Virus record (IMG/VR): IMGVR_UViG_2675903324_000015
Location: 1-37,665 of that record
Origin: a virus
Taxonomy: Duplodnaviria; Heunggongvirae; Uroviricota; Caudoviricetes
Direction: 5' to 3' (one strand)
DNA length: 37,665 nucleotides
The notes under the pieces are model-generated. The model was not told the DNA's origin, made no database searches, and saw nothing but the letters and a program-made list of their open reading frames with translations. Each line of letters opens with the position of its first letter. Position 1 is the first letter of the stretch. Positions 2,582 through 22,879 of the stretch are shown piece after piece. Position numbers and translations under genes: made by a program.

Positions 2582-3646
2582 TTATTTTCTATAGGTCCAA
2601 AGGTGAATAATTATATATATTACAATAGCTAAAATTGCCCCACCGATATAATATGTGCTTGTCGGTATAAATTTAAGAATAAAAGCAAAGGCAGCACCAT
2701 ATATCAAGTACGCAAAAATTTTACTGAATTTGGTTTTCGTGTTTTTAAACTTCACAACAACAGAGAAGTCATTTAGTGTTGTTTCATTATCATTAACAAT
2801 CTTCCAATGGTAAATCATAGGGTCGTGATCACCAAATGAAATACCTTTTTCGAAATATTTTGTCCATGTTTCAGACTCTAATATTCTACATCCTTTATAA
2901 CTTGAGCCAGATGCTGAACATTCATCAACAATATCTCTTATTATAAACAAATGTGTTTTTAAAGGTGTGCAAGCGGCGCTCGCCAGAGTTGTAGCAATTT
3001 CTGAAGGTAGGTTTCTTTGTTCATTGATCCTAAAATCAATAATATCAGAACGCTCAATATTACTTTTGAGAAAGAGATCTTTTGGATAAAATGTTTTTAC
3101 TAAAACACCTATATCTTCATTGTTGAGTTTAACTCGAAATCTTAAATAATGTGGAGCATCCTCTGACGATAGGCAATCTTTTAGCTTGAAAACAATGAAG
3201 GTGCCATTATGTATTTTAGTTACCTTAACCCTACGATCAAGTTCGCCACCACTAAAGGTCAGATTTGTATTAACAACTAAATCACCTTTATTCGCAAGTT
3301 CTAATTTTGAATGTCTGACGTCTACTGTTTTTGTATTAATAAGATATTCATTAAAAACAGCTGTTACGAGATCTCGGCTTGACTCGAGATTTTTACTAAG
3401 ATCAGAAAAAAAACAATTTTCCTTCTCAAATGGTAAAAATATGCATATTGCACCATGATTTGCAATGGTGTCGTCATCAGGTTTTTTAAACGTAATACCA
3501 AAATCTAAATAACAAAATTTATGAGCACTTATATTCCAAAAATTTATGTGTAACTCATTAATAAAATTATTGCGTTCAGGGTTATAGGTCGAACTCGAAT
3601 TGCTCCTATAATCCCTACATCCCCAGATAGCAAAACTTTTTGACAT
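2582..3646 (-). CDS. Hypothetical membrane-anchored protein (354 aa): large N-terminal soluble domain plus two C-terminal transmembrane helices
   Basis: C-terminal hydrophobic segments IFAYLIYGAAFAFILKF and YYIGGAILAIVIYIIIHLW; AT-rich; first gene of the three-gene cassette between cI and int. Confidence 0.5.
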   Translation of the reverse strand: MSKSFAIWGCRDYRSNSSSTYNPERNNFINELHINFWNISAHKFCYLDFGITFKKPDDDTIANHGAICIFLPFEKENCFFSDLSKNLESSRDLVTAVFNEYLINTKTVDVRHSKLELANKGDLVVNTNLTFSGGELDRRVKVTKIHNGTFIVFKLKDCLSSEDAPHYLRFRVKLNNEDIGVLVKTFYPKDLFLKSNIERSDIIDFRINEQRNLPSEIATTLASAACTPLKTHLFIIRDIVDECSASGSSYKGCRILESETWTKYFEKGISFGDHDPMIYHWKIVNDNETTLNDFSVVVKFKNTKTKFSKIFAYLIYGAAFAFILKFIPTSTYYIGGAILAIVIYIIIHLWTYRK

Positions 3647-6205: not shown

Positions 6206-7050
6206 GCACCATCCTGAAATGGGCGGGTAATAAAACCGCCATTATGCCAGAACTGAAAAAATACCTTCCTGCTGGCCCGCGACTGGTTGAACCTTTCGCG
6301 GGTTCTTGTGCTGTGATGATAGAGACGGATTACCCCAGCTATCTTGTTGCGGATATTAATCCTGATTTAATCAACTTCTATAAAAAGGTTGCTGCTGATT
6401 GCGAGGCGTTTATATCTCGTGCCAGAGCTTTATTTGAGGAAGCAAACAGGGAGGTGGCTTATTACAACATAAGGCAGGAGTTTAATTACTCCACTGAAAT
6501 TACTGATTTCATGAAAGCGGTATATTTCCTGTATCTCAATCGTCATGGTTACCGTGGGTTATGTCGCTATAACAAGAGCGGGCATTTCAACATTCCCTAC
6601 GGGAATTATAAAAATCCGTATTTCCCTGAAAAAGAAATTCGCAAATTTGCAGAAAAAGCCCAGCGAGCAACGTTTATCTGCGCCAGCTTTGATGAAACGC
6701 TGGCGATGTTGAAGGCGGGGGATGTGGTGTATTGCGATCCGCCTTATGACGGTACGTTTTCCGGCTATCACACTGATGGCTTCACTGAGGATGACCAGTA
6801 TCACCTGGCATCCGTTCTTGAACATCGATCATCTGAAGGTCATCCGGTCATTGTTTCTAACAGTGACACATCCCTGATTCGTTCGCTGTATCGCAATTTC
6901 ACTCACCACTACATCAAGGCAAAACGCAGCATTGGCGTGTCAGCTGGCGAGAGTAAATCTGCAACAGAAATCATTGCCACCAAATCAGCTGGGGGGTTTG
7001 GTGTCGATTTTGCCAGCGGCTCTGACCGTACCGTTGAGGTACGCGCATGA
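6202..7050 (+). CDS. DNA N6-adenine methyltransferase (Dam-like), 282 aa
   Basis: Motif I FAGSCAV and motif IV DPPY ([10 protein letters not shown]); GGAGG RBS before ATG at 6202. Confidence 0.85.
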
Positions 7051-8057
7051 ATGCTATCGATCCGCGTTGCTTTGCCTCAGGCACCATTAACGTCATCAAT
7101 ACTTCTGGTGGCAAAGATAGTCTCGCTCAATGGCTAAGAGCCATTGAAAACGATGTTCCGCATATTTCTGTATTTGCCGATACGGGTCATGAACATCCAC
7201 AGACAATAGAATATCTGGATTATCTGGAATCAAAGCTGGGCAAGATTATTCGCGTCAAAGCGGATTTCACACGCCAGATAGAAGGGAAACGTAAATTCAT
7301 TGCGGAAAAGTGGCCCATTTCTCTCGTTGAGGAATGTGGTATGTCGACAGATGAGGCTGAGGAACGTATTTACCGGGCACTGGAAATCCTTAAACCAACC
7401 GGCGTTCCGTTTCTTGATTTGTGCATGTGGAAAGGTCGCTTCCCTTCAACAAAAGCTCGTTTCTGCACTTTTGAACTGAAACATGAACCAATACGTACAC
7501 AGGTAATCGATCCAGCTCTGGATGAATACGATGAGGTAATCAGCTGGCAAGGAGTCCGGGGGCAGGAATCACCGGAACGTGCATTGTTGCCTGAGTGGGA
7601 GGACGATGCAGACAATACTCTGGGGCTGCATGTTTATCGTCCGATCCTTAATTGGCTGCATGAGGATGTGTTTGCTATTGCCAAACGTCATGGCATTAAG
7701 CCTAACCCCCTTTATATGCAGGGATGCAGTCGTGTCGGTTGTATGCCATGCATTCATGCTCGCAAGTCAGAACTTGGAGAGATTTTCCAACGCTGGCCAG
7801 AAGAAATCCGCCGAGTGGCTGAGTGGGAAAGACTGGTTGCGGAATGTTCAAGACGTGGCAATTCAACGTTCTTTCCATCCACGCATGATCCGCGCCGTGC
7901 TGAAAAACGGATCGAAGTCATAACTGTTGATGCTTATGGCATTGAAACTTATCGGGACTGGGCCTTAACGACTCGGGGCGGTATGCAGTTTGACCTGCTG
8001 GCAGGCATGAATGATAAAGCGGTGTGCAGCAGTGTATATGCAGGAGTCTGTGAGTGA
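7047..8057 (+). CDS. PAPS-reductase / ATP-pyrophosphatase-like protein (336 aa)
   Basis: N-terminal PP-loop motif SGGKDS; Cys-rich C-terminal region ([10 protein letters not shown]); start overlaps the Dam stop. Confidence 0.65.
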
Positions 8058-10495: not shown

Positions 10496-10587
10496 TTACG
10501 CGGGTTAACAATTCGTGCTCTTAATAATACCAAGCATATCAGGCTAATGAACGTAAAAAAACGTTTTACATCAGTAAGATTATTATA

Positions 10588-12157: not shown

Positions 12158-12733
12158 ATGCTTTTACCCGTAAGTGTTACATCGTGTGGCTTGTATCACC
12201 CCTACTGGCATTTGGGAGAGCGCAACCCTCATAGCGATGAACTATCAAGGCAGATGATGGATTTTAAGGATGAAAATAATCGTAATCATCAAAGGGCTAT
12301 TAACCGTTTTTCTCGATTAGCTATAGATAAGGTTGGGCGGTTAGTAATCAGAGGTGGCGGTGGGCGTTTTGTTGAGTCTCCTTTTTCGATAGCAGTCGTC
12401 CCGTCTCACACTGAAGGCAGAATTTCACCGGCTTTGATTGAGGTCGCCGAGCGAATCGTAAATGTTCACCGTCGGGGCATTGTTGATTGCTGTTTGGAAA
12501 GAACACGCACTGTTCCTAGCGCACATCGTGAAGGAGGCGATCGCTCAATTACTGGTCACATGTCTAGTATCAGAGTTAGGGGTGGTAACCTCATGGGGCG
12601 AAATGTGTTACTACTAGATGATGTTAAAACAACAGGCGGTAGTTTGTCTGCGTGTTTTTATTTACTGGAGTCTGCAGGAGCTGGAGTTATAATGCCATTA
12701 GCTCTGCTAGAAACTGCAAACTATGAGGAGTAG
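12158..12733 (+). CDS. Phosphoribosyltransferase (PRTase, ComF-like) domain protein; true start may be internal
   Basis: Canonical PRPP-binding motif VLLLDDVKTTGGSL near the C-terminus. Confidence 0.75.
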   Translation: MLLPVSVTSCGLYHPYWHLGERNPHSDELSRQMMDFKDENNRNHQRAINRFSRLAIDKVGRLVIRGGGGRFVESPFSIAVVPSHTEGRISPALIEVAERIVNVHRRGIVDCCLERTRTVPSAHREGGDRSITGHMSSIRVRGGNLMGRNVLLLDDVKTTGGSLSACFYLLESAGAGVIMPLALLETANYEE

Positions 12734-13697
12734 CAAAGTGCACTCAGAAGAATTAAAAAATACACTTGGATTAGCTATTCAAATCGGGAAGCTAGCATCT
12801 GATCAAAGTGTATTGAAATTCTTTGAGCTTATTGATTTTGATGTTATTCGTGATATACGCGACTTAACTGAGATGGTTAATAGCCACGGGTTTCTAAAAG
12901 ATAAAATATCTGAGACTGATTTTCTAATAGCGAACGCTGAATTGGAGAACCACCATGTTAATGGTGTGGAGCTAATACCATATGGGTCTGAATTCTATCC
13001 TCTTAGTTTAGCGTTTACTCCTAATCCACCATCAATTCTCTACATAAAAGGGGATAAAAGTATACTAAAAGAATTGCCGGGTGTCGCAATTGTAGGATCC
13101 CGTGATACTTCCCCTGCAGGGGAAGAAATAACGAGGCGAATCACTAATCAGATAGTGTCTGCTGGGTATATTGTTGTAAGTGGGTTAGCAATAGGCACTG
13201 ATGCGAATGCTCATAAGGCAACGTTACAAGCAAAAGGAAAAACCATTGCTGTCTTGGCGCATGGTCTTGAGGAGGCTAAGCCGAAGCAAAACAGTCGACT
13301 TGCTCAAGAGATTCTGGATAAAGGTGGTGCATGGATTTCTGAGTATCCTATGGGTCGACCGGCCCAGAAACAATCATTTGTACAAAGAAATCGGATACAA
13401 GTTGGATTATCTGCAGGTTCAATTTTAATCGAGGCTGCGTTAAATAGCGGAACGATAACTCAAGCTGAGTTTGCAAATAAGGCGAAAAGACCAGTGTTTG
13501 CGGTTGTACCTCACCTACCTAATAATCCGCTTAATCTTAATTGTGAGGGAACAGTTGATTTAGTTAAGAGCAACATGGCTAGAGCGTTAAAAACAAAACG
13601 GGATTATGATGATGTGATTATGATCATAAATGAGTCTCGGGAGTATTTGTTAGAGCTAAAATGGCCAGGGAAACAGAGTACATTAGACTTGATTTAA
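12723..13697 (+). CDS. DprA/Smf-like (SLOG Rossmann-fold) protein, 324 aa; alternative GTG start at 12738
   Basis: DprA-type signature GVAIVGSRDTSP...GLAIGTDANAH...KTIAVLAHGLE...ISEYPMG...QRNRIQVGLS...PVFAV; overlaps the PRTase gene. Confidence 0.75.
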   Translation: MRSSKVHSEELKNTLGLAIQIGKLASDQSVLKFFELIDFDVIRDIRDLTEMVNSHGFLKDKISETDFLIANAELENHHVNGVELIPYGSEFYPLSLAFTPNPPSILYIKGDKSILKELPGVAIVGSRDTSPAGEEITRRITNQIVSAGYIVVSGLAIGTDANAHKATLQAKGKTIAVLAHGLEEAKPKQNSRLAQEILDKGGAWISEYPMGRPAQKQSFVQRNRIQVGLSAGSILIEAALNSGTITQAEFANKAKRPVFAVVPHLPNNPLNLNCEGTVDLVKSNMARALKTKRDYDDVIMIINESREYLLELKWPGKQSTLDLI

Positions 13698-13721: not shown

Positions 13722-14750
13722 CTAAATTTGATATCTCTCGAATTTTATAATTTCTTCACCGCTCCAATGATTAAATTCTTTCATTCTTTTTTGTAATGGT
13801 AATAATTCATTTTTCACAAAGACCTTACTAGCTTTTTCTACATCCCCAAATCCCCCAACATTATTAGGCATTATCCCCATCATCTGTGGCGGAACGCGAT
13901 GTGCTGCCATCATGTCATCCCGGCTCACGTTCTTGATATTTAGAAACTCATCCTTCGCCGCGACTTCTGACAACGGGATAATCTGAAGCCCGTCCTTTTT
14001 GCCGTTCGGCGAGTACATAAACAGGTTACGGAAGTTGCCTGGTCCTTTGGCGCTTTTCATTGCGTTGCGGAGGTTGTTTACATCCTCCTGGTTCTGCGCG
14101 GCATCGGTCATGTACATGATGAAGCCTGCATGACTACCGTTAATGTAATACTTGCGGCGGAACAGCGTGGCGGATTCGTTGAGCAGGGCTGACGGAATGG
14201 CAGAAAGATAACCGGGCAGGCCGTAGATCTCCTGGTTGATGTCCGGTTCCATCAGATGAAAGATGCTGCCTTTCGTGAACTGATACGGCTGGGTTGTCAT
14301 ACCGTATTGCACAAACCAGTAGGTATCCAGGTCTAATCCGCGTCGGGTGTATTTTGCCAGCGCAGGTTCAAGGGCGATCACTTCACCGAAGCGGTTCGTG
14401 CGTTTCTCCAGATAGGCGTTGCCAAATACCAGATAGTCCTGCACAAAACGCGAAAAAGCTTGCTGGCTGAGCAGAGGATGAGGGATATAGGTACTGGTCA
14501 GAATGTTGCACTTTACTGCAATCGGGGAACTGTGATGCACGGCAGCGCGGAAGGTGCGCGCCAGTCCGTCAAAGCTGACGGGCGGCTCATACCAACGGTC
14601 CATCTGTACGCATTCCACATAGTCCAGTAATTCTCGGCGGTCCAGAACAGGAACGGGATCGCCGAAGCTGAATGCTTCGGCTGAAGTTTGGTTTTTATGC
14701 TGGATCTGATTCGTCGCCGCAGTGCGGTTTTTCTTACTCTTTCCCATCAA
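13722..14750 (-). CDS. Q: Portal protein (P2 gpQ family), 342 aa
   Basis: Size, position, 4-nt overlap with the terminase gene. Confidence 0.8.
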   Translation of the reverse strand: MMGKSKKNRTAATNQIQHKNQTSAEAFSFGDPVPVLDRRELLDYVECVQMDRWYEPPVSFDGLARTFRAAVHHSSPIAVKCNILTSTYIPHPLLSQQAFSRFVQDYLVFGNAYLEKRTNRFGEVIALEPALAKYTRRGLDLDTYWFVQYGMTTQPYQFTKGSIFHLMEPDINQEIYGLPGYLSAIPSALLNESATLFRRKYYINGSHAGFIMYMTDAAQNQEDVNNLRNAMKSAKGPGNFRNLFMYSPNGKKDGLQIIPLSEVAAKDEFLNIKNVSRDDMMAAHRVPPQMMGIMPNNVGGFGDVEKASKVFVKNELLPLQKRMKEFNHWSGEEIIKFERYQI

Positions 14751-16513
14751 AAAATCTCCACAATATTGCTGGTATTGGCGGACTCGCCCTGCAGCGGTTC
14801 GTTAAACAGTGCGTGCATCGTTGCCCAGGCCAGATCGGCGTGGCTGGCTTCTTCGCTGCGGCTGGCTTCATAGGTTGGGCGGTTGCCACTGGCGGTGGTT
14901 GCGCGACGGATTGCCATGAATGACTGCGCAATGTCGATGTGCCCGGCGTCAAACTCCAGACGGCGGTGGCTGATAATGTCGTAGGCCTTGAGTACCAGGG
15001 CGTTTTTAACGTTGGGGTTGTAGACAAACTCCCGGACGGCAGGAAAGAACGCTTTCACGTTCTCGTAAACCCCGTGACCAACGCCGGTTGAGTCGATACC
15101 GATATAAGTCACGTTGTACTGCTCGGTAAGTTTTTTGATGGCGTCAGCCTGGGCGCGGAAGTCCATCCCGCGCCACTGGTGACGCTCAAGAATGCGGAAC
15201 TTACCACCCGGCACGGCTGGCGGTGCCACCACCACGCATCCGGCGCTGTCGCCGTTTTGCGTACCTTTTGCCGGGTCATAACCGATCCACACTTCGCGCC
15301 AGCCAAACGGGCGCAGCGCCAGTGCATGAAAGTCGGTCCAGATTTCCCAGCTGTCAACCATGCACGCCTGCAGCTCGCTGAGAGGGAACACGGACGCGAG
15401 ATCGTCCACAAACTCGCACATCAGCAGGTTCTGGTATTCGTCCGGGCTGTACTCCATGCGCAACTGGTCAAGGTCGAACAGGTTACAGCCGCCGCGCACC
15501 GCATCTTCCACGGTGACTATCTGGCGGTATTACCCGTCTGCGCACAGCAGGCCGGGGGCCAGATTGCTGTGGGACAGGTCGATGTCCACCTTATCGGCTT
15601 TGTTGCGCCCACGGTTGAACAGCGCACCGGACCAGAACGGATAAGCACTGTGTGTCAGACTGGATGGCGTGGAAAAATAGGTTTGTCGCCATTTTTTGTG
15701 AATAGCCATACCGGAAGCCACTTTGCGCAGCTCCTGGAATTTCGGTATCCAGAAATATTCATCCAGATACAGGTTTCCGTGGTAACTCTGGGCCGTGCGG
15801 GCATTGGTGCCGAGGAAGTAAAGCGTGGCCCCGTTAGGAAGCACCATCGGATCGCCTTTCAGCTCCACCTCCACTTCTTTGGCAAAGTCGATGATGTACT
15901 GTTTAAAGACGTGAGCCTGAGCCTTGCTGGCAGAAAGGAAAATCTGGTTACGCCCGGTCAGCAGGGCGTCAATCAGGGCTTCACGGGCAAAGTAAAAGGT
16001 CGCGCCGATCTGGCGAGACTTCAGCAGGTTGCGGATGCGATTGGTTTTTCCGGCTTCCCACCAGTGGCGCTGGTAGTTGAACATGGAGGAATGGAAGATT
16101 TCTTCCAGCTTCTCAATCTGTTCATCGGTGAAAACATTCTTTTCCGGCTGACGGCGCGGGCCTTTGTTGCGGTTGGCGACGTTAGGGTTTAAGTCGGCTT
16201 CGTTGCCGCCATTGTTAAACTTGCCGATGCGCGCGTGGCGCTCCGACTGGCGCGCCAGCAGGTCAATCTCTTTGAAATCTTTCCCTTCTTTGTGCTCCTT
16301 CATAATGAGCTGGCAGTAGCGTGCGGCGGTGGTGAGCTGCATCTGATCCAGCGGCCCATAGTCACCCCACTTGTCGCGTTTTTTCCAGCTATGAACGGTT
16401 GCAACTTTCTCGCCCAGCATTTCAGCAATGCGGGCGACGCGGTATCCCTGAAAGTACAGCAGCATGGCCTGCCGACGGGGATCGAGATCTGCGGGTGTCA
16501 GTGTGGTGTTCAT
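14747..16513 (-). pseudogene. P: Terminase large (ATPase) subunit, P2 gpP family, interrupted by an in-frame TAA at 15530-15532
   Basis: Two ORFs (15530-16513 and 14747-15511) in the same frame, separated only by one ochre codon; 589 codons total. Confidence 0.75.
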
Positions 16514-16559
16514 GGCACAAACCTACAGCCTTGAATGAAGGCTTTCCCCGCCTGCGGTT

Positions 16560-16577
16560 TGTGTGGTTGTCGGTACA
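16560..16577. promoter_or_regulatory. Late-promoter activator site TGT-N12-ACA (Ogr/B type) in the divergent P/O region
   Basis: TGTGTGGTTGTCGGTACA about 80 bp upstream of O. Confidence 0.5.
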
Positions 16578-16655
16578 AATACCGCGCATTGTTTCACTGC
16601 CCCCATCACCGCAACCATAAGGCTCCAGTAAGTTTTTTCTAACGGAGCACGGCTC

Positions 16656-18564: not shown

Positions 18565-19215
18565 ATGAGCCTGAGTCCCGCACGGCAGCATCGCCTGCGC
18601 GTTCAGGCTGAACAGGCCGCCCGCGAGGGCGGCAGTGTTCGCCACGCGTCGGGCTATGACCTGATGCTGCTGCAACTGGCGGAAGACCGCCGCCGTCTCA
18701 AGGGCGTTCAGTCCACGGTCAAAAAAGCGGAAATCAAAGTGGAGCTGCTGCCGAAGTACGCCGCCTGGGCGGAGGGTGTCCTGGCTGCCGGAGGCGCACA
18801 GCAGGATGACGTACTGATGTACGTGATGCTGTGGCGCATTGATGCCGGAGATTATGCCGGGGCGCTGGAGATCGGGCGTCATGCCCTGCGTCATGGCTGG
18901 GTGATGCCGCTGGGTAACCGCAACGTGCAGACCGTGCTGGCAGAGGAAATGGCAGACGCAGCGCAGAGCGCAATGCTTGCCGCCATCGGCTTTGATGCTG
19001 ATCTGTTGCTGCAGACGCTGGAACTGACAGACGGTTTGGATATGCCGGACCAGTCACGGGCGCGTCTGCATAAAGCGATTGGCGCTGTCCTGAGTGAAAG
19101 CAATCCGGCTTCCGCCCTTAATCATCTCAACCATGCGTTACAGCTCGATCCCCGCTGTGGCGTGAAAAAAGACAAACAGCAGCTGGAGCGCAGACTGCGC
19201 AATGACAGCCGCTGA
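18565..19215 (+). CDS. M: Terminase small (endonuclease) subunit (P2 gpM family)
   Basis: 216 aa, position. Confidence 0.7.
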   Translation: MSLSPARQHRLRVQAEQAAREGGSVRHASGYDLMLLQLAEDRRRLKGVQSTVKKAEIKVELLPKYAAWAEGVLAAGGAQQDDVLMYVMLWRIDAGDYAGALEIGRHALRHGWVMPLGNRNVQTVLAEEMADAAQSAMLAAIGFDADLLLQTLELTDGLDMPDQSRARLHKAIGAVLSESNPASALNHLNHALQLDPRCGVKKDKQQLERRLRNDSR

Positions 19216-22126: not shown

Positions 22127-22879
22127 TTAAATGCTGAGGTTGTTTTTACACAATAGAATGAAGTCGCAGTACATCTTATGGATTTTAGTTCCCCATTTGT
22201 TAGCTTTTTTTATGGTTTCAGATGTCTCAGGGCTTAAATCCCACGAGGCTCTCTCTCTGTCGGTAAGTATAGACATGAATTCGCTACAGTTTAAATATCC
22301 AGAGTGACAGGATAAAAAATAGTTAAATTTAGTTATTTCTTTGAGTAATTCAATTGATTTGTTTTCTATGTCATCATCATGAAAATGATGATTGGCCTTT
22401 CCCCATTCATAGCAATACGTACTCATGTCTTTAAGGTTGGAGTTATGAAAAGTATTACCAAAGTCATGGGTTTTCAGAAATTCTATTGATTTCGAATCAG
22501 GTGGTAATAATTTTATAAACTCATTATATAACTTAACGTCAGAGTCTCTTTTTCTCTCCGATGCTTCTCTGTTTTCTTTGTCTTTAATAATTTCAAAGTA
22601 CCACTCAGGTGCTTTGCTTAATAAGTTGTAGATTAATCCAAAAGCAATTAAAGTGATGGCCACTACTGTGCTTGGGTTGCCGTTTTCTATGTTTATTATA
22701 TCAATATCTGTATTGAATTTTTTATTATAAATATCAATTAAAAAATTAAGAGCCATTAGATAGTATGGAATTGGTAGTGCGATTATACCTATTCCAGTTA
22801 TAACTAAGAGCCAAGTTATTTTATTACTAAACTCAGGAAATATCACATTGATTATTTTTTTTGCAATCTGTTTTTTCAT
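22127..22879 (-). CDS. Hypothetical membrane protein (250 aa, two N-terminal TM helices plus soluble domain); reverse-strand moron between S and V
   Basis: Very AT-rich; TM segments ITWLLVITGIGIIALPIPYYLMALNFLI and VVAITLIAFGLIYNLL; opposite strand to all flanking late genes. Confidence 0.6.
   Translation of the reverse strand: MKKQIAKKIINVIFPEFSNKITWLLVITGIGIIALPIPYYLMALNFLIDIYNKKFNTDIDIINIENGNPSTVVAITLIAFGLIYNLLSKAPEWYFEIIKDKENREASERKRDSDVKLYNEFIKLLPPDSKSIEFLKTHDFGNTFHNSNLKDMSTYCYEWGKANHHFHDDDIENKSIELLKEITKFNYFLSCHSGYLNCSEFMSILTDRERASWDLSPETSETIKKANKWGTKIHKMYCDFILLCKNNLSI

Follow-up and report, generated by a model that had tools for sequence, protein, structure and literature searches.

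The DNA considered here, referred to as the window, is the whole of a 37,665 nt stretch from IMG/VR (record IMGVR_UViG_2675903324_000015, positions 1 to 37,665). It carries a prophage of the P2/186 type, and the subject of this analysis is the gene for the large terminase subunit of that prophage, terL, the counterpart of gene P of phage P2, which is interrupted by a single in-frame stop codon.

The terminase gene and its in-frame stop

On the minus strand, terL extends over positions 16513..14747, a length of 1767 nt or 589 codons including the terminal TGA, and a single frame runs throughout. Within this frame there is exactly one internal stop, an ochre codon at codon 328, and the gene is seen as two open reading frames (ORFs) in a common frame, one of 327 amino acids (aa) that starts with ATG (15530..16513) and one of 254 aa that starts with GTG at codon 335 (14747..15511). 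The parts of the gene are as follows, with the basis of each assignment in brackets.

14747..16513, minus strand: the complete gene for the gpP-type large terminase (TerL), with TGA after 588 codon positions; now a predicted pseudogene (frame, Pfam domains, match to P2 gpP).
15533..16513, minus strand: codons 1-327, the expected product, comprising the N-terminal helix-turn-helix-like gpP domain and about three-quarters of the ATPase domain (ORF, Pfam, motifs).
15530..15532, minus strand: the ochre codon TAA (codon 328), produced by a coding-strand C>T change of base 15532 that turned CAA (Gln) into TAA (sister comparison).
14747..15529, minus strand: codons 329-588 plus TGA, which encode the C-terminal ~54 residues of the ATPase domain and all of the RNaseH-like nuclease domain and are untranslated from the gene's own start (ORF, Pfam).
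15511-15509 and 15499-15497, minus strand: possible internal starts, GTG at codon 335 and GTG at codon 339, respectively (sequence).

If the stop were read through, the protein around it would be ...LLCADG*YRQIVTVEDAV..., and with Gln in place of the stop the protein matches 588-aa terminases along its full length at 99% identity. A chance pairing of the two ORFs is excluded because this Gln-repaired product matches both those terminases and P2 gpP (63% identity across 588-590 aa) from end to end; as judged from these alignments, the 327-aa and 254-aa ORFs are one gene. The original prediction for this DNA, which was made from the sequence without database searches, described a terminase gene of 589 codons split by a lone TAA at 15530-15532 on the minus strand, and both the layout and the read-through context are exactly as it stated.

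The Gln-repaired protein contains three Pfam domains: Terminase_5 (PF06056), the gpP-specific N-terminal domain, at residues 11-68 (E 3.3e-27); Terminase_6N (PF03237), the ASCE ATPase domain, at residues 162-382 (E 3e-65); and Terminase_6C (PF17289), the RNaseH-like nuclease domain, at residues 410-571 (E 1.7e-49), the last of which is encoded wholly 3' of the stop. The ATPase motifs, in contrast, are all N-terminal of the stop, with a Walker A motif KSRQIGAT at 165-172, a Walker B motif LYLDE at 248-252 and an STPS motif at 281-284. An AlphaFold2 model built from a 34-sequence alignment had a mean predicted local distance difference test score (pLDDT) of 57.8, with residues 235-402 mostly below 50, and was set aside as too poor. 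In the PDB, sequence and profile searches reached no more than a weak match in the nuclease domain, to a Thermus-phage terminase (E about 0.8), and an NCBIfam search gave no useful match.

In its three-domain architecture, its full-length similarity to P2 gpP and its position, divergent from O and followed by the portal gene Q in one operon, the gene is like that of P2, and all that it lacks of a gpP-type TerL is an uninterrupted frame of ~588 aa. The P2 record likewise has one P operon that encodes P and then Q, with a transcription start upstream of P. At the DNA level, terL is 97.5% identical to that of phage Cartapus (Peduoviridae, Elveevirus) and 99.6-99.7% identical to those of prophages in Escherichia coli E2 and D7. 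By these measures of sequence and synteny the gene is a P2 gpP-type large terminase by descent, and now a pseudogene. gpP is one of seven hallmark proteins of the Peduoviridae (PMC13100340).

The ancestral codon and the age of the change

The codon that preceded the stop can be read from relatives at several distances. Codon 328 is CAA in E2, D7 and ECamp52 and CAG in Cartapus, and Gln occupies position 328 both in P2 gpP and in 33 of 34 homologues, which range from 74 to 99% identity; the residue falls within a conserved block, DGQ[YW]RQI[VI]T[VI]EDA. Sister prophages, collected via contigs that encode an identical portal protein, give the closest comparison: the terL genes of four of them (L025, L029, L030 and L032) differ from that of the window at gene nt 982 only, with C in the sisters and T here, and the exact Q328 version of the window's terL allele is present on 81 contigs. 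Because the sisters, the homologues and P2 gpP all point to CAA or Gln, the lesion is taken to be a single C>T transition that changed CAA (Gln328) to TAA. The alignment to P2 gpP that had been proposed for identifying the original sense codon gives Gln at this position, in agreement with CAA as the ancestral codon.

Three other sites separate the window from its nearest CAA sisters. At each of these the window's base is common to more distant relatives, so that the three changes are derived in the CAA sisters, and in the ~6 kb compared the TAA lineage has no derived change other than the C>T. By this comparison the nonsense mutation is very recent in evolutionary terms. The TAA allele is absent from the complete E. 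coli genomes: 1149 of them contain the 71 nt that surround the codon, in no case is the match exact, and the best have one mismatch. On present sampling of sequences, the stop is private to one E. coli clone.

Occurrence of the TAA allele in separate assemblies

The stop is a single-base substitution, which speaks for an error of sequencing or assembly in a gene that is truly intact; the original prediction had itself named a sequencing error as an alternative. A 250-aa fragment, the ORF that starts at GTG339, is called as a gene only if the terminase is split, and it directly follows the 327-aa fragment on 16 contigs. These TAA contigs come from separate runs in at least two accession series, SRR13592195, ERR4504646 and ERR4504647 among them, and over 9-21 kb they match the window at 99.995-100% identity. 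The NCBI assembly GCA_016684355.1 (L027) also has TAA. Its annotation has no gene called across the stretch, which would be expected from either an error or a true pseudogene. An intergenic single-nucleotide polymorphism (SNP) at window position 10533, between gpA and a 62-aa ORF, divides the carriers: the window and the ERR4504646 contig have one base, whilst L027, the SRR13592195 contig and all CAA sisters have the other. The TAA is inherited and not an artefact, because the contigs that carry it fall into two haplotypes that differ at this position. With the same base recurring in 16 independently assembled contigs and in the NCBI assembly, a support that is at the level of contigs, and with differences elsewhere amongst those contigs, a sequencing error is effectively excluded as judged from these assemblies, and we give it next to no weight. 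The SNP at 10533 could also mark sub-lineages of the TAA clone.

Predicted consequences for packaging

Several further features bear on what loss of the terminase would mean for the prophage.

13722..14747, minus strand: the portal gene (gpQ), intact, with its ATG overlapping the terminase TGA (TGATG) (sequence, sister comparison).
16514..16655, no strand assigned: the intergenic region from which terL and the scaffold gene gpO diverge, the putative counterpart of the P2 pP/pO late promoter region (synteny only).
18565..19215, plus strand: the small terminase subunit (gpM), intact, with 216 of 216 aa aligned to the protein of the E2 relative (L001) at 98.6% identity and no stop (Pfam Phage_term_smal on the sister-contig copies).
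11981..12035, minus strand: a cos-like site, the putative packaging substrate (55 of 55 nt identical to a stretch annotated as putative cos in phage Cartapus).

A cos consensus had no match in the window, and the site was found via the annotated Cartapus end.

P2 gene P is essential for DNA packaging. Very probably, the prophage, which is P2/186-like and otherwise intact, has become packaging-defective through a recent C>T change (Gln328 to TAA) that inactivates its large terminase. Translation from the native start would end after residue 327, with the N-terminal gpP domain, the Walker A and B motifs and the coupling motifs kept. Lacking the final quarter of its ATPase domain and all of the nuclease domain, the 327-aa product would be expected neither to cut cos nor to translocate DNA. 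The stop also leaves ~780 nt of untranslated message ahead of Q, and portal expression is probably lowered by polarity, because terL precedes Q as the first gene of their common operon and the two genes overlap at TGATG. On induction, excision, replication, the making of proheads and tails, and lysis would be expected to proceed and yet to give no DNA-filled infectious particles. Rescue might come from a one-base reversion or from a compatible terminase supplied in trans, the latter being possible in principle because the cos-like site, gpM and the portal are intact.

The original prediction of a packaging-defective prophage is supported by the position of the stop, which, as placed by the Pfam matches, lies within Terminase_6N and upstream of all of Terminase_6C. 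It was further suggested that the prophage is domesticated or decaying and is retained for its cargo. Of this suggestion, at most a first step of decay can be upheld, together with the presence of defence cargo; long retention is unsupported, since the stop is the only lesion found. The several lesions and lost modules of a long-domesticated or cryptic prophage are not found here, the 40 other genes being intact and the cos-like site kept. The defence cargo makes continued retention plausible, and the allele is best read as a young loss of function at the earliest detectable stage of prophage decay.

Some points weigh against the conclusion that packaging is lost. Loss of packaging is judged from domain content, and the placing of the stop inside the ATPase fold is drawn from the Pfam envelope and the order of the motifs, the structure model being unusable. 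The 16 runs span at least two accession series, and the isolates behind them may not all be independent. A host ochre suppressor could also be present, the negative tRNA search having covered the window.

Alternative explanations of the stop

The terminase might still function despite the stop, either as two pieces or through suppression. A two-piece enzyme would pair the 327-aa N-terminal fragment with a C-terminal fragment re-initiated at GTG335 or GTG339. These in-frame GTGs lie only 7 and 11 codons past the stop, and the GTG339 ORF is accepted by gene callers and holds the whole nuclease domain. However, no clear or strong Shine-Dalgarno sequence is visible upstream of either GTG, and the cut is inside the ATPase domain, in one of the most conserved blocks of the family, and does not coincide with a linker between domains. 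In phage T4, expression of the ATPase and nuclease domains of gp17 as separate proteins is not known to restore packaging. The family also argues against a natural division of the gene. The 120 clusters of closest homologues, which come from Pantoea, Citrobacter, Dickeya, Photorhabdus, Xenorhabdus, Morganella and other genera, contain proteins of 500-845 aa, the great majority being 557-623 aa. None of the 120 is split: the ATPase domain is always on the same chain as the nuclease domain, and the full set of three Pfam domains is present except in a fusion (P0145) that is without the N-terminal one. A total of 60 phage records match at least 80% of terL, with one terminase gene annotated in each of those inspected. 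Two separate genes at this position in intact relatives, which the original prediction had given as an alternative to be looked for, were thus found neither in these clusters and phage records nor in the 1149 complete E. coli genomes. With its relatives single-chain and its break intradomain, the gene does not resemble a naturally split two-gene terminase, and it is extremely improbable that the two fragments function together. Read-through, by a host ochre-suppressor tRNA or by programmed recoding, would need to supply enough full-length terminase for the phage to be viable, and it has in its favour that the frame is open on both sides of the stop and a complete protein could be restored. Against it, a tRNA gene search of the window found none, and ochre suppressors are rare in natural isolates and weak. 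The context of the stop is UAA-U (a T follows the codon), which of all termination signals in E. coli is the most efficient. Nor is the stop conserved, being found in none of the 1149 genomes, with the sisters having CAA and 33 of the 34 homologues Gln, so that it is not a programmed signal. Frameshifting could not rescue terL, because both shifted frames close within 5-17 codons: the +1 frame closes 5 codons downstream and the -1 frame 17 (ORF 15517..15648). In the absence of a conserved stop context, a productive alternate frame and a window-borne tRNA, the features of programmed recoding are missing, and a phage kept viable by read-through seems very unlikely.

Alternatively, the truncation may be adaptive, in that the fragment poisons the packaging motor or sequesters the small subunit of superinfecting P2-like phages, or in that loss of virions was selected with the defence cargo kept. 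The fragment does keep the N-terminal gpP domain and the Walker motifs, the allele has outlived at least one later SNP and is present in at least 17 assemblies, and the prophage carries ShosTA-like and PDC-M11-like defence genes (described below). An Ogr or delta activator that enters the cell can switch on late genes of resident P2-type prophages in trans. A more specific form of this idea is that the 327-aa fragment acts as a dominant-negative decoy: a heteroimmune P2-like phage or P4-type satellite would transactivate the late operons of the prophage, and the fragment would then sequester the small subunit or stall the motor of the newcomer. In that event the dead terminase would be a superinfection-interference factor that adds to the ShosTA-like and PDC-M11-like cargo. 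However, the allele is confined to one clone and does not recur in the 1149 complete genomes, and it is the sole derived change, with no sign of selection. Spread of the clone is equally well fitted by hitch-hiking of a neutral lesion, and the lysis genes are intact, leaving the host unprotected from induction. An adaptive truncation therefore has little to commend it, and the decoy form is no more than a slight prospect; a recent inactivating mutation remains the preferred explanation.

Relation to known phages and prophages

Laboratory P2 gene P nonsense mutants are conditionally lethal and fail in DNA packaging. The allele described here would, by analogy, be functionally equivalent to such a mutant, with the difference that it is a natural ochre in the resident prophage of a wild clone, whereas the P2 mutants are ambers selected in a suppressor host. 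The prophage also differs from P2 itself in being a 186-type relative with early genes of the CI/CII/Fil type.

A further close likeness is to the Elveevirus-type prophages of E. coli and Klebsiella (Cartapus and the E2 and D7 prophages). The E2 prophage occupies the same ybjL-side site, and its structural module is collinear with the one described here. In these relatives, unlike the present prophage, terL is intact and codon 328 is CAA or CAG. The cargo differs too, being ShosTA-like and PDC-M11-like here and an AAA ATPase and a DUF2971 protein in the E2 prophage.

As in defective or cryptic prophages, an essential virion gene has been inactivated whilst the element remains in the chromosome. 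It is unlike cryptic remnants in that there is a single point lesion, with all else intact, which one base change could reverse. Three remnants at the ybjL site (L022, L023 and L024, in E. coli WCHEC035123, MS10495 and W137) show an advanced decay of the same kind of prophage: a deletion fuses a fragment of the late control gene D to a terminase without its N-terminus, and an intact portal gene follows.

The kind of event is ordinary, and opens no long-standing question. What the prophage provides is a clean and datable example of the very first step of decay, one transition on a background otherwise identical to that of living sisters, and natural isogenic CAA/TAA partners that can be compared directly exist in public collections. 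With all modules present it would pass most predictors of intact prophages, yet it probably yields no infectious particles. The practical relevance is small, and is to users of the clone for induction, transduction or P4-helper work.

Contig ends at codon 328 and rearranged terminases

The exact 327-aa product appears on many contigs, which prompted consideration of an insertion or recombination hot spot at the stop; this was rejected. Nine of the ten places shown for the 327-aa product (L006-L014) are wild-type metagenome or run contigs that end in ...GGGCA, two bases into codon 328, that is, at terL gene nt 983/984 (window 15531/15530). These ends are best explained as assembly breaks at a common synonymous CAA/CAG polymorphism. 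Breaks within 300 nt of the site were seen in only 6 of 1207 complete-genome records, and a pattern scan of viral contigs for junctions other than CA gave chance hits only.

In three terminase fragments from draft genomes (P0034, P0037 and P0042), unrelated N-terminal leaders are joined exactly at Y329; these may be alleles with a frameshift or a mosaic structure at the edge of the conserved block. The leader of P0042 was not found in any phage record. Fusions that are 99-100% identical to this terminase, and so further rearranged or mutated versions of the gene, are also present in public assemblies of Salmonella Typhi and E. coli, two of them terminase-portal fusions of 731 and 660 aa (P0046 and P0047) and one a tail-fibre-terminase fusion of 845 aa (P0145).

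Gene content and cargo of the prophage

The element is a complete prophage of the P2/186 type. It has an integrase, CI, CII, Fil, Dam and the replication protein gpA, the portal Q and terminase P with O-N-M-L on the other strand, lysis genes, tail genes, D and Ogr, and its right flank, ybjL-ybjM-grxA, is 99.8% identical to E. coli. By gene content and flank it is a P2/186-like (Peduoviridae) prophage integrated next to ybjL in one E. coli clone. Compared with the E2 relative, the other 40 prophage genes have no stop or frameshift and are full length or nearly so. The CI repressor is of a divergent type, with 50% identity to that of the E2 relative.

The variable region between the portal gene and gpA, adjoining the cos-like site, holds a ShosTA-like toxin-antitoxin defence pair on the plus strand (12158-12733 and 12723-13697). 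The ShosT-like protein is 191 aa and phosphoribosyltransferase-like (PADLOC 3.6e-14), and the ShosA-like protein is 324 aa and DprA-like (2.8e-70; Pfam DNA_processg_A). In sister prophages the same region holds an RNase-A-like toxin with CdiI-type immunity, or an insertion sequence element. Three further cargo genes lie on the minus strand between the integrase gene and CI (1132-1503, 1475-2554 and 2582-3646). Amongst these, a 123-aa ASCH-domain protein (component B, 2.2e-49) and a 359-aa protein (component A, 9.6e-134) match the PADLOC candidate system PDC-M11, and a 354-aa ORF in the module has no family match. The module is absent from E. coli E2, the closest complete-genome relative.

Between the Dam methylase gene and gpA, at 7047-8057 on the plus strand, is a gene for a 336-aa PAPS-reductase-domain protein with partial matches to the SspD, BrxP and DndC models; the E2 prophage has an unrelated hypothetical gene at this position. 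A 250-aa orphan ORF at 22127-22879 on the minus strand, distinct from the terminase fragment of the same length, lies on the opposite strand between the tail genes gpS and gpV. It belongs to no Pfam family and is 99.6% conserved in E2, and it looks like a moron.

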